From a virus (taxonomy: Duplodnaviria; Caudoviricetes), in IMG/VR virus record IMGVR_UViG_3300011434_000020, positions 1 through 27,697 of that record: DNA of 27,697 nt. The stretch is one strand, 5' to 3'. Numbering within the stretch: position 1 is the stretch's first letter; each line of letters starts with the position of its first letter. A program made the translations under genes and the position numbers. The notes beneath the pieces were generated by a model. The model was not told where the DNA came from. It saw nothing but the letters and a program-made list of their open reading frames with translations, and searched no databases. Below are positions 3,264 to 24,714 of this stretch, piece after piece.

Positions 3264-4682
3264 CTAGATTACTCCTCTAGCTTTCCAATCAATCGTAGAA
3301 TTTATTCTATTACCAGAAGAATCAAATACTAGAATCCTAAAATCATCTTTATTTACAGCATCGCAAACAGCATATAAAGGTTGAAGAGAAGTAGCTGCCG
3401 TTGCCGTTACCGAACTAATCCCTGTAAACACTTTGTTATAGGTTACGAGCGTTCCTCCCACATCAGACGCCAAACAATCAATAGAACCGGAATCCAGAGT
3501 AAGAGTAACATTGAGAACGACTTTTAGATTAGTAATAAAAGCGGCTGAAAGATCATCAACATTAGTAAAGATCCATTTAATCTTTACATATCTAAAAGAT
3601 GGAGCAAGAGCACCATTTCCAACTACTGGAGTAGTGTATATTATTCCGTCATCAGAATAAGAAAACTCAGTAGTAACATTAGTAGAGCCATAGAGTTGCT
3701 GTTTATTATAATCTATGACAATACTTAGCTCTTCGTAAATCTGTCCGAAGTCGAATACTTCCTCATAAGAACCTACTCCATTGTAAGCCGGTTGCCAATA
3801 GATTGGATAACCTTTGTCAACTTGGTCTTGTGGAGAAATAAATCCAAAATCTACATAATGTTGTTCCCACGTCTTATCATTCCAAACAGGGCCAAGAACA
3901 CCTACTAACCCATCAATAATAACCTGTTCAGTATGATTATAGATTCCAGTATAATCTGCCTGTAGTTCATCAACAAACTCAAACTCAGATGGATCATGTA
4001 AGTCTACAACTTTAGTGGCCGACCTAAGAGAAACATTACCAACAATGTCAACTGCTTCAACAGAATAGCCATATGAACCGCCTACCTGCTCCTGAATTAG
4101 CTTAAAGGTTCCGTTAATAATACCAATAGGAATATTATCTTTATAAACTACGTAATGGTCAATCCTCCAAGCTGAAGCTGGAACCGTCCATCTCAACAAC
4201 ACAGTAGAAACAACTACTTCTACAGAAAGTTCAGGAGGAGGGATTGTTGGGATAATTAATGTTGCTGCTGAAGAATCTCCCAACTCTCCCTCTAGGTTCA
4301 TTGCCCTAATTAAAAACTGATAAGTACCATATACTAAGTTTAACCAAACAGGATCGACATTAGCAACATCAGTAGCAGTAAGTACAATATGCTTGGCAGT
4401 AATCCAATCGTCACCCATCTTAATATGGTAACGAAAAGCTCCAGGAAGGTCATCCCAATCAAGTCTAAGATTATCGGGGTAGGCCACCCCATTAAAGTTT
4501 TGAACTGGCCCTAGCGGTTTAATGACTCCGCCTTGGTCAACCCCTCCAATTACCTTAGGTGGAAATACCTTATTGTTAATAGTATATAAATCGTCAATCA
4601 TCAACTGGAGAGCACGGAACAGAGTAGGATTAGTCTTATCGTCAACCCTTATCAGATTGCGAACCGCGTTCTCGTTAGCCAT
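3264..4682 (-). CDS. tail protein with fibronectin-III-like domains
   Basis: Beta-rich FN3-like segments (LRLDWDDLPGAFRYHI; LLRWTVP...YVVYKD...YSVEAVDIVGNVS); located in tail module. Confidence 0.7.
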   Translation of the reverse strand: MANENAVRNLIRVDDKTNPTLFRALQLMIDDLYTINNKVFPPKVIGGVDQGGVIKPLGPVQNFNGVAYPDNLRLDWDDLPGAFRYHIKMGDDWITAKHIVLTATDVANVDPVWLNLVYGTYQFLIRAMNLEGELGDSSAATLIIPTIPPPELSVEVVVSTVLLRWTVPASAWRIDHYVVYKDNIPIGIINGTFKLIQEQVGGSYGYSVEAVDIVGNVSLRSATKVVDLHDPSEFEFVDELQADYTGIYNHTEQVIIDGLVGVLGPVWNDKTWEQHYVDFGFISPQDQVDKGYPIYWQPAYNGVGSYEEVFDFGQIYEELSIVIDYNKQQLYGSTNVTTEFSYSDDGIIYTTPVVGNGALAPSFRYVKIKWIFTNVDDLSAAFITNLKVVLNVTLTLDSGSIDCLASDVGGTLVTYNKVFTGISSVTATAATSLQPLYAVCDAVNKDDFRILVFDSSGNRINSTIDWKARGVI

Positions 4683-6613
4683 TACTCAACGATTCTAGGC
4701 GTTTCTGCCCAGAGAGATTTGGCATCCACTGACATTTCAAACAAAGTAAATCGTTCTCCTGCGTTTAGATTAGACATTAGCTTTACAGACATTTTAGTAT
4801 CGACAAAGTTAATGGGTTTCTGGTAGTAAAGATTAGGAGTCTCACTTAGTGTCCATCTTGGTGGATTCATAATCTTCTGATTATTTACACCATAGAGATA
4901 GATATTAAAGTAACCAACTCCCTCTACTCTTGCCTCTAAAAACCCAAAGTGGTTAACAAAATATCCCTTAGTCTTAAGAAGATGAGTTTGGATGTATGAA
5001 GTAATTCTAGTATTGTCGTCTAATACTAATCCTTCTGTCTGTTCGTAAATATGTCCTGAGAAGCCGGATTGCTTGAAAACGGTTTCTGCGTTTAAGTTAC
5101 TATCTGCCACAATAGAAGTAACAGACCAAGGAAATGCCCAGAAATTCCATCTAACTAATGTTCCTACTAACTGGCCGTAACGATTGAAAGCATTGTTGTA
5201 ATCACCAACAAGAATATGAGAACATTCAGTAGCAATATCTAATGGGACCGAGGCGTAAAGGAGTTTTGCTTCCGGGTCATCAACAAGCTGGACTTTACTA
5301 AACTCTTTCTTATTAATTCTGGCCCAGACTCCTGCGATATTATCTGAAAAAGGAGGGTCTTGAAATCCCCCACCTTCATAACAATATATTCCTGATTTGT
5401 CTCCTTGGAAAAATCTTTTGACACTGGTTCCTCGTGAGTCTAGAATCTTTGAAACAGAGAAGCACTCTGCACCGATAGCTTTGTCGAGAGGGTCACAGCG
5501 CCAGCTATCAGGATCGTTACCATTATCAACAGTAATATAAGTTCTGTCTTGCGTTTGAATGAGTAATGAGGTTTCATGGTCTACGACATTCTTAATAGAA
5601 CTAATTGCGTCAGACGGATCAAGATATAGTAAGCCACCAGTCTGGTCAAAATTCTCAACAAAGATGGCCGCTGAGAAGAAGACATAGTGCTCAAAAGCTG
5701 GAACACCCCAAAGGGCCATTCTATTGTTATAGACTGTTAGCCCTAATCCACACGGAATAGTACTTCTTGAATCAAATAGATAGTCTGCTGAATCGATAAG
5801 GTCTTCGTCAAAGAAGTTAATATCGTGTAGAAAGGTAGTGGTGTTGTCAAAAATCCTTCCGTTTGGCATGAAGAAGAATTCATAACCAAGCTGATTCCCG
5901 GTATACATTCCCGGTGGGATTGATTTAGTAATGAGTAATCTTCTTGCAACAGTCCCAGTTGGGCCAATTCCAATCCCATCTACATTAAGCTTAAAACCAC
6001 CAGGAGAATCCCACAAACCAAAAGTTTCAGGTCCTGGTGCTGTAATAAATCCAGTTGATGTTTCATAACAAACTGCAACTAAATATGTTCCTAACCCCGG
6101 GTCACCAGCGTTAACAGAAGTAGTACAGCTAAGAGCAAAACCAGTAGGAGTAGTTCCACCAGCTGCTCGTAAAGTTCCCGGTCCTTCTCCTTCGTATACT
6201 TGTACGTTCGCACCTGCAATACCAGATACCCTGTCATGAAAAGTAATATAAGCGCGATTAAGGTAGTTAAGCGCACTGAAGTCTTTGAAGTTTACATTGG
6301 TAATTAGTGGAGAACCATAGAGAGAATCCCACAAACTACCATTGGTATCGAGTATCAAGTAACGAGAAGTCTCATTGAGTCTCTTATAAACAAAGAATCT
6401 CCTGATGTTAGGCAGGTCGAAAATCTTTGTAAATCCATCCCGCGTCCGAACCTCTATCTGTTCAAACGAAGTATTAAGAGAATCAATGAAATAGCCAGGT
6501 GGAACTGCGTCATCTATACCATTGAAGTACAGACCCTTCCATTGGTTAATCGGAATCTGTTCGTGATCCCGAAGACCTGTTCTTTTAGTGGGAGGCATAC
6601 GCAGTTCCACCAA
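4682..6613 (-). CDS. tail nozzle / stabilisation protein (P22 gp10 / T7 gp12-like)
   Basis: 643 aa, beta-propeller-like composition, position after the adaptor gene. Confidence 0.7.
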   Translation of the reverse strand: MVELRMPPTKRTGLRDHEQIPINQWKGLYFNGIDDAVPPGYFIDSLNTSFEQIEVRTRDGFTKIFDLPNIRRFFVYKRLNETSRYLILDTNGSLWDSLYGSPLITNVNFKDFSALNYLNRAYITFHDRVSGIAGANVQVYEGEGPGTLRAAGGTTPTGFALSCTTSVNAGDPGLGTYLVAVCYETSTGFITAPGPETFGLWDSPGGFKLNVDGIGIGPTGTVARRLLITKSIPPGMYTGNQLGYEFFFMPNGRIFDNTTTFLHDINFFDEDLIDSADYLFDSRSTIPCGLGLTVYNNRMALWGVPAFEHYVFFSAAIFVENFDQTGGLLYLDPSDAISSIKNVVDHETSLLIQTQDRTYITVDNGNDPDSWRCDPLDKAIGAECFSVSKILDSRGTSVKRFFQGDKSGIYCYEGGGFQDPPFSDNIAGVWARINKKEFSKVQLVDDPEAKLLYASVPLDIATECSHILVGDYNNAFNRYGQLVGTLVRWNFWAFPWSVTSIVADSNLNAETVFKQSGFSGHIYEQTEGLVLDDNTRITSYIQTHLLKTKGYFVNHFGFLEARVEGVGYFNIYLYGVNNQKIMNPPRWTLSETPNLYYQKPINFVDTKMSVKLMSNLNAGERFTLFEMSVDAKSLWAETPRIVE

Positions 6614-14073: not shown

Positions 14074-14294
14074 TCTGTTTCAATTTCTAATGCAGTATGT
14101 TTAACCTTGTTAGCTAATGCTTGTTCTCTTATCTTTGAGTAGACTGACCTGTAACCTCTGGCACCTTTGAACTCTACTTCGTTCTTTACTCTTTCAAACT
14201 TTTCGTCACGCATTAGAGCTTTAAGTTCAGCTACCTCATCTTGCAAGTAAACAATGAACTCATCCTTTGCTCTAATGGTACCTTCTAAAGCCAC
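14070..14294 (-). CDS. small coiled-coil protein between terminase and portal (start uncertain)
   Basis: Stop overlaps portal ATG (ATGA); a GTG at 14294 gives 74 aa; the frame is open further into terL up to 14504. Confidence 0.55.
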   Translation of the reverse strand: MALEGTIRAKDEFIVYLQDEVAELKALMRDEKFERVKNEVEFKGARGYRSVYSKIREQALANKVKHTALEIETE

Positions 14295-15933
14295 GACGAC
14301 GGAAAGTTGTTCCGCTTCTTGCTTCTTTCTTTGATTCGAGGTATTCCATCTTACGGTAAAAAGCTGTTTGATCGCCTTGAGAAAGCTGGTTAATAGCCTC
14401 TTGAGTCTTTGCATCATGCTCAAATTGCTTGGCATTGGCAACTTGGTACTCTCTGATTCCGGTGAGGAGGATTCGTATACAGTCGTAAGGGTCGTCACCG
14501 TCAAACTCCTTTACGTCCTCAGCTTTCTTTCCTTCTTCTGGAGAGTCAGCGTATACGCAAGCCGGAATCGTTTCTACTAACATGGGACAGGTATCAAATA
14601 TTTGAAGCTTAGGTAAATTCTTTTCATCCTTCTCTTGCTCAAATAGCTTTACATATTCTACATAAGCTGTTTGACCGTAGAGTCTATATACTTTGTCTGC
14701 ATATTCTTTGTCGAAATCTCCTCCATATATTTTAGCCACTGAATCCTTAGGCGTCCACCGGAGGTATTCATGTAAAGCCAGCTTACCATTAATTCTATTT
14801 CTTTCTCCAAGTTCAATGCCACATTTGAATTCCGCTTTACGTAAAGACTTTTGTAACTGGTCATAAATAGTAGACGGTTCACCTTTGTTCTGGTCGGCTG
14901 AATGGCAAATCTTAACCTTAGCAAGTATCTCTCGTTCCTCCGGCTGGGTTAAGTTAATCAAGTCTGTTAAGTAGTCTACTACTTTTTTTCCTTTGAAAGC
15001 GTATTCTCTGTAGATAAAGACCCTACCATTAGGGGATAAGGCTGCCCAATATATAACTGTATAGGCTGCGTAACCCCAATCAATTGCAATAAAACGGGGC
15101 CACCAGCTTGGGATTGAAAAAGGTTCAATAACATGCCTTGCATTATCTGGTTCATCAGATAATGGTTCGAGTCTGAATTCGTTAAAGACTTGTCCCTCAT
15201 ATGTATCCCAATCACCATAAAGTTTAGCCTTCTTTTCTGCTTCACTCAGAGACATCAACTGTTGGATGTACTCTGGATTGTTTGCTAATAGTGTAGGATT
15301 ATCCTGAATCCTGGCCGGAATGAATATCCTTTTCAATCCGGTAATGGAATCTATTAAGAGTCTGTAGCCTTCTTTCCAAGGCTTAACGAATCTCTTCTTA
15401 AAGTATGCATGACCAACATTTCCAGGATTGGTTCCGCTCCTTGCAATGGCAGGAAGATCCGCACATCTAGAACGGAGCCGGGACATAACGAGATATGAAT
15501 ACTGGAATTCTGTAAAATGTGTTGCTTCATCATATGAAATGAGGTTATACTGGTCGGAGTCGAACTTTCTAATATCATCTTCTTTATCCGCTCCGCCAAA
15601 ATATTGAACCGCTCCTGAGGGGAACGTCCACTTCTTTTTGGTATCATTGAAAACCCCACCAAGACTAGGATATATTTCTTTGGAACGAGATATTAACTCT
15701 GTCTCTAATTGTTTGAGATTACGACGTAATATGATTCCCTTGTACAAAGGATGTTCATGGAACTGATAGATAAGAGGCAGCCATATAATGAGTTCTGTCT
15801 TTCCGGCTCCAGCAGCACCACCGTACAATGCTTCCTTAACAGACCAAGGAATTGCGATAAAGTCATTTTGCTTCTTTGTGGGAGTAAACTCCCGTTCAAC
15901 TACCGATTGAACTTCTACCCGGTTCGTGAGCAT
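14272..15933 (-). CDS. terL: terminase large subunit
   Basis: Walker A GGAAGAGKT, Walker B LISYDEA, coupling motif GTNPG, RNase H-like nuclease AIDWG...DDPYDCIR. Confidence 0.95.
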   Translation of the reverse strand: MLTNRVEVQSVVEREFTPTKKQNDFIAIPWSVKEALYGGAAGAGKTELIIWLPLIYQFHEHPLYKGIILRRNLKQLETELISRSKEIYPSLGGVFNDTKKKWTFPSGAVQYFGGADKEDDIRKFDSDQYNLISYDEATHFTEFQYSYLVMSRLRSRCADLPAIARSGTNPGNVGHAYFKKRFVKPWKEGYRLLIDSITGLKRIFIPARIQDNPTLLANNPEYIQQLMSLSEAEKKAKLYGDWDTYEGQVFNEFRLEPLSDEPDNARHVIEPFSIPSWWPRFIAIDWGYAAYTVIYWAALSPNGRVFIYREYAFKGKKVVDYLTDLINLTQPEEREILAKVKICHSADQNKGEPSTIYDQLQKSLRKAEFKCGIELGERNRINGKLALHEYLRWTPKDSVAKIYGGDFDKEYADKVYRLYGQTAYVEYVKLFEQEKDEKNLPKLQIFDTCPMLVETIPACVYADSPEEGKKAEDVKEFDGDDPYDCIRILLTGIREYQVANAKQFEHDAKTQEAINQLSQGDQTAFYRKMEYLESKKEARSGTTFRRRGFRRYH

Positions 15934-21197: not shown

Positions 21198-21256
21198 AGT
21201 CGTTGTTCGTTTCGTTGTTAGTCGTTCGTTAGTCGTTAGTCGTTAGTCGTTCGTCG
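21198..21256. repeat. short tandem repeat array of AGTCGTT / TCGTT
   Basis: AGTCGTT at 21198, 21220, 21231, 21238, 21245 plus partial CGTT units. Confidence 0.9.
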
Positions 21257-21492: not shown

Positions 21493-21510
21493 AATTACAA
21501 TACGCCAAAA

Positions 21511-21790
21511 GCCTAATGGATTGATTCAGGGGCTATCGAAAGGTTGTCCCCATGAATAATCACATTTTGGTTGGTTCAGACTCACTCAGTAGAGTAGTTG
21601 GTTTACCTCGCGTGACTACCTCGCATTACTGCCAATTCGGCAGATTGCTGGTATCTCACTTCGGTAATTCATTCAACGTTACTCGTTGTGACTCAGAAAA
21701 GCAGGCCCGTGAGTTTATGACGGCTGTCTGTAAGAACGTGAGAACTCGTTAACTCGTTTCTTTTCTAGCCTCTGAATCAGTCCATTAGGT
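21511..21790 (+). repeat. long-range stem 1 (arms 21511-21535 / 21766-21790) enclosing ORF 21552..21752
   Basis: GCCTAATGGATTGATTCAGGGGCTA / TAGCCTCTGAATCAGTCCATTAGGT: 25 of 25 paired, 3 G-U. Confidence 0.95.
21552..21752 (+). CDS. early hypothetical protein (66 aa)
   Basis: GAAAGG RBS; fills the loop of stem 1. Confidence 0.7.
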   Translation: MNNHILVGSDSLSRVVGLPRVTTSHYCQFGRLLVSHFGNSFNVTRCDSEKQAREFMTAVCKNVRTR

Positions 21791-21831
21791 TAGGTTCGCA
21801 GGTTTCTTTAGTGCCCTAGAAAGGTCACAAC

Positions 21832-21993
21832 ATGAAACCTACCAATCACCCAATCCACAGACTAACGTGGACTGATGGCAATGGTGAAAAGCAAACTCTA
21901 GACTTCCGTAGTCGTGAGCGAGCTATTTACTACCTGAACATCCTTATCCTTGATATGGGTGTTCCTGATGCCAAGCGGACTGTCATTCGCTAA
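21832..21993 (+). CDS. early hypothetical protein (53 aa)
   Basis: Not in track; GAAAGG RBS, MKPTNHPIHRLTWTDGNGEKQTLDF..., TAATG coupling to the next gene. Confidence 0.75.
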   Translation: MKPTNHPIHRLTWTDGNGEKQTLDFRSRERAIYYLNILILDMGVPDAKRTVIR

Positions 21994-22283
21994 TGACTCT
22001 CAATCACAAGATGGTTGAGTATCTGGATGACCAGCTAGAGAAGCAGGAACAAGCTATTGGAAAGCTTCAGTATGCTACTGCCTGCTCCGATAGAGAGCTA
22101 CCGACAGCACAAATGCTGTTTATCATGCTCGCAGAGGTTAACAGATACTCTCGCTACATTCGTCATGCTTTGCAGGAAGCGCATGATTGCGAACATTGTA
22201 AAGAAAACGGATTGATTGTCACTCTGGACTGCTACGATAGCTCAGAAGACATTCAATCAGACTTTCTCCCTGAACCTGAGTAG
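21993..22283 (+). CDS. early hypothetical protein (96 aa)
   Basis: TAATG coupling; HDCEHC motif; small TAGCCC/GGGCTA hairpin at the stop. Confidence 0.75.
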   Translation: MTLNHKMVEYLDDQLEKQEQAIGKLQYATACSDRELPTAQMLFIMLAEVNRYSRYIRHALQEAHDCEHCKENGLIVTLDCYDSSEDIQSDFLPEPE

Positions 22284-22344
22284 CCCTGCGGGGCTAACAA
22301 GTAAACCATTTCTTTTCAGGGCACTTAAGAAGCTTGCGAACCTA

Positions 22345-22992
22345 AGGATTGTAGACTCTCTAAAGTCTACTGGGCACCTAACCTAGTAGAAAGAGAGAGT
22401 GTAACAATGCTCAAACTTCACACCTGTAAGATTGCCAAAAAGGGCAAAGGACAGCAGGGGTTTGTCACGGTCGAAATGTTTGGTATTCCCAAGCTTGACG
22501 ACAATGGCATTGCCCGTTCCTTTGACTATTCAGATGTGGTAGCAGGTCATACCTTGACTACCCTTCTGGATGGCATCGAACAGACAAACAAACTCAACAA
22601 TCGTATGATGCTGGAAGCGATTGTTCGTGGTGCTGATTTGATGAACTCCCGTCAGTCCTTGCAGAATGCCGTAATGGTCAATGAAATGGCCGAATGGATT
22701 CTCGCTCAGGACTTGGCTGAAGACATGCAGAAAGCTGAAGACTTGGCTGCTGTGTGGAATCAGACTCAGGCGTTTCAAAAGAAGTGCGGAATCCTTGTCT
22801 ATTGCAAGGAAGACTTCGCAAAGGAACGTCAGAAGTATGTGGATTCTCAGAAAGCTTTGGGAATCTGGAAGTCTTGTCTCGTTGGAGACACTACGCCAGA
22901 GAATCCTGTCGAAGACATTCCTGAGACTCCTGCGGCGTCAGAGAGCAAGTAATATTAACCTGCTCAGTAGATTTCATAGAGTCTACAATCCT
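22345..22992 (+). repeat. long-range stem 3 (arms 22345-22376 / 22961-22992) enclosing ORF 22407..22952
   Basis: AGGATTGTAGACTCTCTAAAGTCTACTGGGCA / TGCTCAGTAGATTTCATAGAGTCTACAATCCT: 30 of 32 paired, 2 G-U. Confidence 0.95.
22407..22952 (+). CDS. early hypothetical protein (181 aa)
   Basis: Purine-rich RBS, acidic C-terminal tail; fills the loop of stem 3. Confidence 0.8.
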   Translation: MLKLHTCKIAKKGKGQQGFVTVEMFGIPKLDDNGIARSFDYSDVVAGHTLTTLLDGIEQTNKLNNRMMLEAIVRGADLMNSRQSLQNAVMVNEMAEWILAQDLAEDMQKAEDLAAVWNQTQAFQKKCGILVYCKEDFAKERQKYVDSQKALGIWKSCLVGDTTPENPVEDIPETPAASESK

Positions 22993-23058
22993 ATAGTCGG
23001 TAATCTTTTGTGGGGTTCTTTGGTAGCCTGCGGCCTAACCATTAGGAAGCAGGTTACT

Positions 23059-23292
23059 ATGTTCTACGAACTCAGCAAAGAAGTTAACACAAAGCTGGCA
23101 ATGATTGGTCACAGACACATCATGCACAAGCTTCACGTAAAGATGCGTAAGACGCATGAACGTGCCATTCTCCGGTCTGTCTATCAGGCATCAGGAGACA
23201 AGACAGTCAATGAAATCCTTTTGGAGAACGAAAACATTCTCTCAAAGGAAATCACTCAGGAAGAGATTGCTCAGGAAGCATTGAAATACTAA
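23059..23292 (+). CDS. early hypothetical protein (77 aa)
   Basis: Start reassigned to MFYELSKE (AGGAAGCAGG RBS) inside the 203 aa track ORF. Confidence 0.75.
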   Translation: MFYELSKEVNTKLAMIGHRHIMHKLHVKMRKTHERAILRSVYQASGDKTVNEILLENENILSKEITQEEIAQEALKY

Positions 23293-23345
23293 TGGAGCCT
23301 GTCATTCTCTACGACAACACAGGTCGAGTGATTCATCTCCGTTAG
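23292..23345 (+). CDS. possible 17 aa micro-ORF (MEPVILYDNTGRVIHLR)
   Basis: TAATG coupling; stops just before the 3' arm of stem 4. Confidence 0.4.
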   Translation: MEPVILYDNTGRVIHLR

Positions 23346-23493
23346 TTAACTGTCGCAGGCTACTTAAGAACTTCACAAGAGAATTACCTCTGAAGAGTGC
23401 CGTTCCTTAAACAAGAACAAATACTCAGCCCAAAAGGTTATTTACAGAGTGAGGGTTAAACGAACTGTAAACTGGCTCTTCAGAAAAGACTAT

Positions 23494-23925
23494 TTTGTTT
23501 GTGTGCTTTATTGGTAGCCTTGGAAGTAGAAAGGTATCCAATGATTGACTTGAGTAAGGTCACTAACAAGATTGCTGCAATCAAGGCACTACGCGAATTG
23601 CCAATCAAGATTCACACACAAGAGACTTCACCAATGTTTCACACTGTCTCAATCGATTTGGGATTGCGTGAGGCAAAGGAATTGGTTGAAGCAATCATGG
23701 CTATTCAGCCACAGACTTTCGTGGTGGATGGTCTGAATGCCAAAATCAAGACTCTGCAAGAGGAATTGCGTGAGACTGAAAATCGTCTTATGCTCTTTCG
23801 TTCCAACATTCAGGATTCCTTGGATAAGAGTTATCAGTCCAAGTCAATCTCTGACTACTCCGATAGCTACGACGACCCAAAGTTCTAACTAGTCTTTCAG
23901 GCTACCAGTTAAGCACACAAGCAAG
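23494..23925 (+). repeat. long-range stem 5 (arms 23494-23526 / 23894-23925) enclosing the bL12-like gene
   Basis: TTTGTTTGTGTGCTTTATTGGTAGCCTTGGAAG / CTTTCAGGCTACCAGTTAAGCACACAAGCAAG: 31 pairs, 4 G-U, 1 U-U, 1 bulge. Confidence 0.95.
23541..23888 (+). CDS. ribosomal protein bL12 (L7/L12) C-terminal-domain-like protein with coiled-coil tail
   Basis: NKIAAIKALRE-(insert)-LGLREAKELVE matches the bL12 signature KI.VIK.VRE.TGLGLKEAK.LVE; start reassigned to ATG 23541 (GAAAGG RBS). Confidence 0.75.
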   Translation: MIDLSKVTNKIAAIKALRELPIKIHTQETSPMFHTVSIDLGLREAKELVEAIMAIQPQTFVVDGLNAKIKTLQEELRETENRLMLFRSNIQDSLDKSYQSKSISDYSDSYDDPKF

Positions 23926-23926
23926 A

Positions 23927-24217
23927 ACTTATAGGTTTCATTCAGTGCTGGACAGAAAGGTTATCTAGTATGGAAAAGAAGTATTACCACTTCTATATTA
24001 CTTCAGGTTATGTAGAAGTTCTTGCTCTTAATCCTGAAGATGCAATCAGAAAGGTTACTGACGAGCGTAACAATTGCAGATTCCTTTTCACACAACCGTC
24101 AAAAGACCGTGATGGAGATGATTGTTTCATCTGTCTATCAGCACAAGGCAATCCAGAAGAAGTTAAGTAACTTAGTTAGGACTTCTCATTCTCCAGCATT
24201 GAATAAAATCTATAAGT
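23927..24217 (+). repeat. long-range stem 6 (arms 23927-23952 / 24192-24217) enclosing ORF 23970..24170
   Basis: ACTTATAGGTTTCATTCAGTGCTGGA / TCCAGCATTGAATAAAATCTATAAGT: 25 of 26 paired, 2 G-U. Confidence 0.95.
23970..24170 (+). CDS. early hypothetical protein (66 aa)
   Basis: GAAAGG RBS; VEVLALNPEDAIRKV motif common in small phage proteins. Confidence 0.75.
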   Translation: MEKKYYHFYITSGYVEVLALNPEDAIRKVTDERNNCRFLFTQPSKDRDGDDCFICLSAQGNPEEVK

Positions 24218-24714
24218 TTGGCAAAATGCCATGTATGCCTATGCTCATTTTGTGGTGGGCTTGTGGCTATCCTGTGGCTATCCTGTGGTCATCTTGTGGT
24301 AGGTCAAAATGCAGGTTTTCTACGAAATCCCTAGGAAATCTTCAATTTCTGGTCTACCATCCCCCTCCCTCCCCTACTTTTTTAGGGTAGGGTAGTGTCT
24401 CCTTTTTAGGTCAGTGGGTGGTGGGTGGTTCTTCTTTATATATAATAAAAAAAATATATATAAAGAAACACAAACAACTAAAGCAATACAAAACACCCCA
24501 AACCACTGTCACCAAAGGAGGACACCTTGACTACCCAAAAAGGGTATGGTATACTCCCCTAGTAGGCGGCAGAAAACCTCTAAGTGCCTGCTAGGCAAGG
24601 GGTTAAGGCTAGGGTAGGGGCTGAAAACTGCCAGAAATTTGCCACATAGCGCACCATAGAATAGCCACAAATAGCTAGCAATACAGCATATGAGTGTAAT
24701 GGCAAAAGAGCTAA
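24218..24714. other. non-coding quasi-palindromic region, candidate replication origin
   Basis: Central AT-rich dyad TTCTTTATATATA/TATATATAAAGAA, mirrored motifs on both sides, 11-bp TGTGGCTATCC-type tandem repeats at 24262-24300 with inverted copies near 24641-24670. Confidence 0.5.
24527..24555 (+). promoter_or_regulatory. strong sigma70-type promoter
   Basis: TTGACT (24527-24532)-17 bp-TATACT (24550-24555) with extended -10 TG. Confidence 0.8.

Follow-up and report, generated by a model that had tools for sequence, protein, structure and literature searches.

Gene-enclosing RNA helices in a phage operon resemble the leader-trailer helices of bacterial rRNA precursors

The + strand of a tailed-phage genome (IMGVR_UViG_3300011434_000020), analyzed here as a window of 27,697 nt (27.7 kb), carries six small gene units, each enclosed by its own long-range helix. 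In this phage and its relatives, the helices are conserved, their G-U pairs are biased to the sense strand, and the start and stop codons fit tightly between the arms. The genes between fixed arms are replaced, and a boxA-type motif precedes the array in most relatives. We propose, with a probability of about 0.6, that the phage message is built like an rRNA precursor, from which host RNase III likely releases single-gene units whose ends stay paired.

The six stems of the window are real. Each spans 28–37 columns and closes a loop of 215–584 nt, and no other + strand stem in the window has a score of at least 50 and a loop of 120–1000 nt. Dinucleotide shuffles of the array region (n = 150) contain a mean of 0.007 such stems, with a maximum of 1. 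A first-pass annotation of this DNA had located all six stems correctly, together with the sizes of the ORFs inside the loops, and the arms abut as it described, at 21790, 22345 and 23925. The pairing that it proposed between the two leftover inter-unit gaps is found as 6 bp in the minimum-energy fold. This fold of the + strand contains five of the six stems; stem 3 is absent, with local hairpins favored instead. The excess of G-U over A-C positions, which had been counted as 18 versus 2, becomes 19 versus 3 when both are scored symmetrically (p = 0.0009). The loops hold ORFs and no rRNA, and Rfam gives no match in the array region at E ≤ 1 and none in the window at the gathering score. The window showed no promoter for the array, and no close match was found among named genomes or cultured phages.

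All units lie on the + strand. The 5´ arm of unit 1 (21510–21543) overlaps the ribosome-binding site with its inner end, and together with the 3´ arm (21759–21791) it encloses a gene for a 66-aa protein of no family (21552–21752). Unit 2 (arms at 21790–21824 and 22311–22345) holds two coupled ORFs (53 and 96 aa), also of no family (21832–22283). In both units, an inner extension of the stem pairs with the Shine-Dalgarno sequence. Unit 3 (arms at 22345–22376 and 22961–22992) encloses the gene of a 181-aa protein (22407–22952) that belongs to a conserved family of the clade, termed RRGK, with no known family or fold; its 5´ arm has an alternative local fold over the ribosome-binding site. Unit 4 (arms at 22999–23034 and 23352–23388) holds ORFs of 77 and 17 aa (23059–23345), and a population variant in its 5´ arm, 23013 G>A, turns a G-U pair into A-U. 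The 115-aa protein of unit 5 (23541–23888; arms at 23493–23526 and 23894–23926) has a coiled coil and a weak likeness to the C-terminal domain of ribosomal protein L7/L12 (E = 0.009, below the cut-off). Unit 6 (arms at 23925–23952 and 24192–24219) encodes a 66-aa protein of no family (23970–24170). Pfam matches of the cargo are all below the cut-off, and the seven larger cargo proteins of the window have no PHROG match. Two sequencing runs that are labelled RNA-Seq are probably DNA and yielded short scattered contigs.

Thirteen related phages carry one to six gene-enclosing stem units each. In eight orthologous stems around the RRGK gene, 179 of 192 cells are paired, compared with 132 ± 4 when the partners are shuffled. 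Pairwise, these stems show 239 two-sided and 49 one-sided changes that keep the pairing and 51 that lose it, counts that come from related sequences and not from independent events. Pooled over 38 stems, a set that includes the L020 stem (entered on the wrong strand) and one G003 stem without an ORF, G-U outnumbers A-C by 84 to 25; G-U is in excess in 28 stems and A-C in 2. Where the array is inverted, the bias tracks the sense strand. The covariation and the strand-following bias support selection on a sense-strand RNA helix, as the first-pass annotation had argued.

Its claim that the stems do not belong to a repeat family goes too far. The arms form a degenerate family with a loose consensus, in which two helices of 11–13 bp surround a center. 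The 35 anchored stems (the 38 minus the L020 stem, the ORF-less G003 stem and one too short to anchor) have a constant length of 24–26 bp. All 35 are paired at positions −11 to −6, and mismatches cluster at −4, −3 and −1. Start codons of small-cargo units lie 37–64 nt from the outer edge of the stem, in 28 of 36 units the first ORF stops no more than 21 nt from the 3´ arm, and all cargo ORFs (36/36) are in sense orientation. A stem-motif scan of viral sequences returned seven loci, all within the clade, and a scan of metagenomes returned 34, of which seven have arrays and the others are taken as chance; scanning with a second motif gave three loci, each already known. Locus searches with the RRGK protein as query gave no new loci, and the same layout is also present in phages without an RRGK match.

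The helices resemble an RNase III substrate on one side of the center. Scored with the E. coli determinants taken from PMC1540722, the 3´ arms of 35 stems carry G at −11 in 26, C at −6 in 29, A/U at −4 in 34 and an A-U pair at −3 in 25. The best-register half-site score is 180 versus 160 ± 4 for the same 38 stems as above, for a register that was picked after the match was seen. The corresponding values are 94.5 versus 84.4 ± 2.6 for 20 less redundant stems, 73.5 versus 67.1 ± 2.4 for 16 later-found stems (which include the L014 stem at 15702, probably not a gene unit), and 29 versus 26.2 ± 1.4 for the six stems of the window. On the minus strand the score is almost as high (172.5), and it therefore gives no support for RNA by itself. 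The best fit in the array is the 3´ arm of unit 2, where a cut is predicted after 22329. The length of the stems, about two helical turns, and their inner half fit an RNase III substrate, but the outer half does not: the mirror positions deviate (+4 G in 6/35, +10 U in 0/35), and this half follows its own consensus instead of mirroring the E. coli boxes. A G-C or C-G pair occupies the antideterminant position, which blocks E. coli RNase III, in 10 of 35 stems.

An rRNA-type boxA is located 12–199 nt upstream of the first stem, on the sense strand, in 10 of 13 relatives, as an exact 13-mer in eight and a near match in two (chance 6e-5 per 300 nt). It is absent in the window and in L006, L070 and L014, and L031 has boxA without a clear unit stem. 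With one to three mismatches, the phage motif occurs in the rrn leader or spacer of three of the four bacterial genomes examined, and in two of these it forms the 5´ strand of the 16S leader-trailer helix. Among viral loci selected by boxA, a stem lies downstream in 17 of 78 cases versus upstream in 4 of 74. The exact 19-mer was not beside rRNA at any of nine bacterial places (9/9). Seven viral loci that a script flagged as rRNA contain none. The rRNA-operon style of expression put forward in the first-pass annotation is strengthened by boxA and by the RNase III-like half site, whereas transcription, cleavage and exonuclease protection are predictions. In bacterial rRNA operons, as described in the available text of PMC10250234, PMC8632103, PMC5725501 and PMC13753749, a helix of about 25–35 bp likewise forms from the flanks of a looped-out unit; the upkeep of the helix by covariation, the upstream boxA of most relatives and the RNase III-like helix center are further likenesses. 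Measured against the same text, the phages differ in that their units enclose protein-coding genes rather than rRNA, with cleavage a prediction here, that up to six units lie back to back with differing arms and swappable content, and that the window genome has no boxA.

Cargo is replaced between fixed arms. In the nearly identical phages L068 and L070, one socket has identical arms and sharply bounded, unrelated genes inside. The 5´ arm of window unit 6 is 97% identical to an arm of L002 that surrounds an unrelated gene of 107 aa. These two cases support an earlier suggestion that the units act as exchangeable cassettes. In the same unit, a population contig diverges from the window at 23961. 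The cargo of one relative comprises AAA_24 and PD-(D/E)XK genes. RRGK is the single constant cargo gene of the clade; in 2 of the 12 loci that could be judged, no stem encloses it. Its structure model is confident (pLDDT 91); structure comparisons of the model gave a best Z of 5.9, no viral match at E ≤ 0.001, Atlas matches below 0.8, and no likeness to nucleases or dsRNA-binding proteins.

Each small gene of the operon sits within a 25–35 bp helix whose pairing is maintained by compensatory change. Host RNA polymerase would transcribe the array as one message and, in genomes with boxA, which excludes that of the window, Nus factors loaded at this motif may help the distant arms to pair. The cuts of host RNase III are expected near the middle of each helix and would leave 2-nt 3´ overhangs and single-gene mRNAs whose ends are still paired; the predicted units of the window are about 254, 522, 616, 349, 400 and 265 nt, closed by 11–12 bp. 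Once released, they would gain stability and be translated independently. Because a unit would fail unless its arms match, abutting arm pairs may persist as about 60 bp of common sequence between variable genes, at which ordinary recombination between related phages could swap cargo. Our best reading is that the arms also determine where cargo is exchanged. More tentatively, the entire rRNA-precursor pathway (boxA/Nus loading, leader-trailer helices, RNase III) may have been taken over by phages to serve as a general cassette for expressing accessory genes. The helices would then be standard sockets, in which whatever gene is inserted becomes a separate closed-loop mRNA, possibly circular, with its stop tied to its own start, and the sockets would mark exchange of first-expressed counter-defence genes across many phage lineages.

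The helices could instead stay uncut in the mRNA, where they would tie the stop codon to the gene's own ribosome-binding site, insulate folding, and time or dose translation, with closure partly hiding the Shine-Dalgarno sequence of small cargo and freeing that of RRGK. The tight placement of start and stop codons and the inner extensions of units 1 and 2 agree with such a role. Upon closure, 22 of 26 small units lose predicted Shine-Dalgarno accessibility and 8 of 10 RRGK-type units gain it, but these shifts are modest and without a null model, and longer RNAs hide more anyway. We consider this explanation unlikely; it leaves the constant length, the central mismatch cluster and the half-site sequence unexplained. 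In hok-like type I toxin mRNAs, the translation start is masked by pairing to the 3´ end, and there is a cognate antisense RNA; the predicted folds here show partial Shine-Dalgarno pairing in small units and the opposite trend in RRGK units. It is distinctly improbable that the helices are processed or bound not by canonical RNase III but by a different factor, such as host Mini-III, another nuclease or a phage protein like the basic RRGK. Such a factor would account for the conserved outer half, and RRGK is the one constant cargo, but this protein resembles neither nucleases nor dsRNA-binding proteins, phages without an RRGK match have the layout, and no RNase III-family gene was found among 55 ORFs of three relatives.

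Those 55 ORFs also yielded no RNA ligase, which speaks against ligation of the adjacent ends after cleavage and expression of each gene from a covalently closed circular mRNA. The ends would be held together by the remaining 11–12 bp, and no unit lacks a ribosome-binding site or a stop codon of its own; however, the 3-4-3 bulge-helix-bulge, the circularization motif of archaea, is missing from all 38 stems, which have single mismatches and single bulges only. Bacterial pre-rRNA cut by RNase III is not known to circularize, and we regard circles as highly improbable. Barely credible is the view that the arms are DNA elements, either sites for an invertase, a transposase or an integron-type system, or the outcome of template switching in which one arm is copied from its partner. 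Sharp cargo boundaries would suit such elements, template switching gives two-sided changes without RNA selection, and an excess of G-T over A-C fits single-stranded DNA too. Yet the cargo is uniformly in sense orientation, contigs of four DNA runs, which drop rare forms, contain no skip or strand-change joint in the array, and no integrase, invertase or other site-specific recombinase was found in the 55 ORFs scanned. Unlike in integron cassettes, the arms stay constant while the cargo changes, and the conserved central mismatches and the G-U bias speak against mere copying. The inversion and integron models are not supported.

The proposed cleavage by host RNase III into paired-end units can be set beside several known systems. 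In lambdoid and T4-type phages, genes are shuffled with the help of conserved boundary sequences and mobile promoter cassettes; these elements resemble the abutting arms as short conserved intergenic stretches that act as crossover points between variable genes, but they are direct repeats or promoters, whereas the arms are matched complementary pairs under RNA-structure selection. The RNase III sites of SPO1 are local intergenic hairpins. The available text of PMC8708148 gives site R1.1 of T7 early mRNA as a local stem of 49 nt, and that of PMC3896407 reports RNase III processing of the SPO1 host-takeover module. As in these phages, small early-type genes near a probable genome end are likely separated by host RNase III; in contrast to their local hairpins, the strands here are 215–730 nt apart and flank a gene, and both unit ends would stay paired. 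Distant duplexes within one mRNA have a precedent in B. subtilis and E. coli, where RNase III cuts duplexes of 10–36 bp, formed by mRNA parts as far as about 1 kb from each other, with 2-nt overhangs (bioRxiv 10.1101/2023.03.12.532304; PMC6212723); in the available text of these sources they are scattered single cases for decay or regulation, rather than ordered gene-sized sockets. The lambda early message also uses boxA (nutL), Nus factors and RNase III, but according to the available text of PMC5725501 it requires N and boxB, and its RNase III stem sits in the N leader and encloses no gene.

No description of a gene-enclosing stem array was found in the open-access literature. If the proposed processing is true, phages would have a second early-expression design beside T7-type local hairpins, namely gene-sized RNA loops taken over from ribosome biogenesis. 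The stems would be a sequence-independent flag for small, quickly swapped, unannotated genes, which are candidates for host takeover or counter-defence. The array offers a test of whether joining both ends of a bacterial mRNA alters its stability or ribosome recycling, and the design is testable by synthetic constructs that need no phage culture.

A non-coding element without an Rfam match lies between units 4 and 5 (23389–23485, + strand). A hammerhead-like identity was rejected, as the core is lost in the two relatives. Across the three phages, the closing stem of the element is variable and its interior is nearly invariant.

All six long-range stems proposed in the first-pass annotation are present in the window, where they bracket the gene units of a plus-strand array at 21510–24219. 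They are the only plus-strand stems with a score of at least 50 and a loop of 120–1000 nt in the 27.7 kb, and such stems averaged 0.007 over 150 shuffles. The reported excess of G-U over A-C positions on the plus strand also holds (19 vs 3, both scored alike), and symmetric scoring of 38 stems from the window and its relatives gives 84 vs 25. The earlier statement that the stems are not a repeat family goes too far: the arms have a loose common consensus and thus constitute a degenerate family. The minimum-energy fold of the plus strand (−965 kcal/mol) forms five of the six stems, and that of the minus strand (−886 kcal/mol) forms all six. In the plus-strand fold, stem 3 loses to local hairpins, one of which covers the unit 3 ribosome-binding site. 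We propose that the array is transcribed as an rRNA-precursor-like message, each helix of which would be cut by host RNase III to release single-gene units.

The terminase large subunit gene (14275–15933, minus strand) identifies a tailed phage. The other long ORFs lie on the minus strand up to 20797, after which coding switches to the plus strand with the array as its first block, a position that suggests early expression. Heptamer tandem repeats occupy 21199–21256, 5´ of the array, and in three runs contig depth is greater to the left of ~21300, which hints at a genome end or packaging start. The runs containing most of the window are freshwater sediment metagenomes, and the nearest cultured phages share ~30% terminase identity. 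Full-length relatives are 48–49 kb, two with direct terminal repeats, and relatives encode a UDG-fused family A polymerase, an SNF2 helicase, AAA_24 and PD-(D/E)XK proteins and an Acb2/Tad1 domain; in two of them the genes for this anti-defence-type domain lie outside the array (L047 17850–18296; L053 14611–15033). A scan of 55 ORFs on the early and replication side in three relatives turned up no RNA polymerase, RNase III, RNA ligase, reverse transcriptase or integrase.

A terminase search returned 44 loci, 38 of them at 71–100%, and arrays of one to six units occur in 13 distinct relatives: six units in L002 and L006; three in L070/L068/L071, L076/L086 and L014; two each in L065, G001, G002, G004 and G008; and one clear unit each in G003, G007 and L020. 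The relative L031 has the leader without a clear unit stem, and remoter phages (L146, L180 and L116; terminase 31–44%) have the same layout. Thirty-six of the 38 stems enclose a sense ORF that starts just inside the 5´ arm, and in 28 of these 36 units the stop codon of the first ORF is no more than 21 nt from the 3´ arm. The near-constant cargo is the RRGK protein, carried by unit 3 of the window (90 profile hits), whose gene lies within a stem in 10 of 12 judgeable loci (13 found, one truncated); sequence and structure comparison matched it to no known family or fold. Relative to the terminase, the L020 block of boxA (a motif of rRNA operons), stem and RRGK gene (4300–6500) points the opposite way to that of all other relatives, and its boxA, ORF and G-U bias all track the sense strand; this inversion is either real or a misassembly. 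In G001 (L047 4295–5265), an alternative 32-bp pairing is possible between the 5´ region of unit 1 and the end of unit 2, which would enclose both genes; G002 has a weaker counterpart.

Pairing is maintained as the arms diverge. Across eight orthologous RRGK stems, pairing holds in 179 of 192 cells, compared with 132 ± 4 for shuffled partners (largest 148 in 5000). In pairwise comparison, pairing survives 239 two-sided and 49 one-sided changes and is lost in 51; these counts come from related sequences on author-set anchors and are not independent events. Population contigs show four single-letter variants within arms, all of which leave pairing intact or improve it; three of the four rest on one contig at depth 3.6.

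The helix consists of two helices of 11–13 bp flanking a soft centre. In 35 anchored stems, numbered from the helix centre with minus for the inner half, positions −11 to −6 are paired in 35/35 and +1 to +12 in nearly all, while mismatches concentrate at −4, −3 and −1. The inner half of the 3´ arm fits the E. coli RNase III determinants (PMC1540722, with position numbering taken in part from general background), matching A-12 in 18, G-11 in 26, C-6 in 29, A/U at −4 in 34 and A-U at −3 in 25 of the 35 stems. In every set the best-register score exceeds that of column shuffles: 180 vs 160 ± 4 (38 stems), 94.5 vs 84.4 ± 2.6 (20 less redundant stems), 73.5 vs 67.1 ± 2.4 (16 later-found stems) and 29 vs 26.2 ± 1.4 (window stems alone). 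Three results count against the fit: the boxes have no mirror image in the outer half, proximal-box position 2 is G-C or C-G in 10/35 stems, and the minus strand scores nearly as high (172.5). A single box set is reported to be enough (PMC1540722), and distal-box dependence is described as differing among species (PMC3074117). The predicted cuts would yield units of 254, 522, 616, 349, 400 and 265 nt, with linkers of 29–42 nt and one of 142 nt around a non-coding element.

Leader alignment revealed the motif GYTCTTTGAMAAY, which matches the published E. coli and B. subtilis boxA cores (PMC5725501, PMC13753749). Of the 13 array-bearing relatives, 8 carry it exactly and 2 in near-exact form, 12–199 nt upstream of the first stem; in G001 and G004 it is the sole exact copy, and G002 has one per end-repeat copy. 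At six rrn loci in four bacterial genomes, the 19-mer occurs with 1–3 mismatches in three genomes, in leader or spacer, and is absent from rrn in the fourth; in two genomes it supplies the 5´ strand of the helix between 16S leader and trailer. Exact copies occupy nine sites, spread over 8 of the 301 genomes from one phylum, and none of the nine adjoins rRNA; at four of them (L235, L236, L237 and L243) an Rfam pemK motif lies ~150 nt downstream on the same strand. Among 122 viral loci chosen by the 19-mer only, a long-range stem follows downstream in 17 of the 78 with enough DNA, compared with 4 of 74 upstream; one of these loci is G008 again. In 13 inspected loci the stem begins within 75 nt and usually surrounds the first one or more genes; four have boxA itself as the 5´ arm, as in those rrn leaders. 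A boxA with a first-gene stem but no RRGK match occurs in L113, L115, L169, L175, L139, L145, L156, L162, L128 and L150, and several boxA phages of this kind have a consensus-like promoter just upstream. In a published model, a boxA-anchored complex brings the leader strand to the trailer, with an effect of just 2- to 3-fold (PMC8632103 and PMC10250234). The motif is missing from the window, L006, L070 and L014, and such loss fits this small reported effect.

The helices may instead remain uncut and time translation, a role that could operate alongside cleavage. This has some support: predicted Shine-Dalgarno accessibility drops on closure in 22/26 small units and increases in 8/10 RRGK-type units, both raw counts with no null model. 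That the arms are DNA-level elements lacks support, since no cargo is inverted, contigs from four DNA runs show no joints inside the array, and no recombinase of that type was found among the 55 ORFs. Nothing observed here favours ligation of the units into circles, as once suggested, and this reading is unlikely.

The arm pairs behave as sockets whose cargo changes. L068 and L070 have nearly identical neighbouring units and unit 2 arms, and their unit 2 genes are unrelated from start to stop. Likewise, the unit 6 arms of the window and L002 are 95–97% alike and enclose unrelated genes, and one population contig diverges from the window at 23961, directly after the unit 6 ribosome-binding site. 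One cargo changes sides of the RRGK unit, lying 3´ of it in L002 and 5´ in L006, and its outer arms differ between the two. Selection for matched arms would preserve ~60 bp of common sequence at each junction, where homologous recombination could swap cargo; the first entry of new genes falls outside this scheme. A protein at 23541–23888 of the window (L065 6204–6530) weakly resembles the C-terminal domain of ribosomal protein L7/L12 and also has a coiled coil; its gene is inside a stem in four phages and outside any stem in L065.

All the components are already known: boxA, the leader-trailer helix, RNase III (for phage mRNA, PMC8708148 and PMC3896407) and long-range mRNA duplexes (PMC6212723 and bioRxiv 2023.03.12.532304). 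The novelty is in how they are combined, into a row of mRNA sockets with interchangeable content. We found no paper on gene-enclosing stem arrays in phage mRNA in the open-access literature searched, which largely leaves out subscription journals and older papers.

The ~95-nt non-coding element between units 4 and 5 (window 23389–23485; L002 1682–1784 and L006 4550–4650, both minus strand) has compensated variation in its closing stem, an almost invariant interior and two copies of the word TTAAAC. It occurs in only these three phages, has no match in Rfam, and is a candidate structured small RNA freed by the same cuts as the units. Directly after the array, window 24245–24700 contains 11-bp tandem repeats in inverted arrangement around an A+T-rich palindrome and a good sigma-70-like promoter at 24527–24555; this region is a likely replication origin, and relatives have the same layout at this place with other repeat units. 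In the 49-kb record of G002, the array appears at both ends (619–1332 and 48282–48996) inside a ~1.75 kb repeat, which may be an array-bearing long terminal repeat or an assembly overlap.
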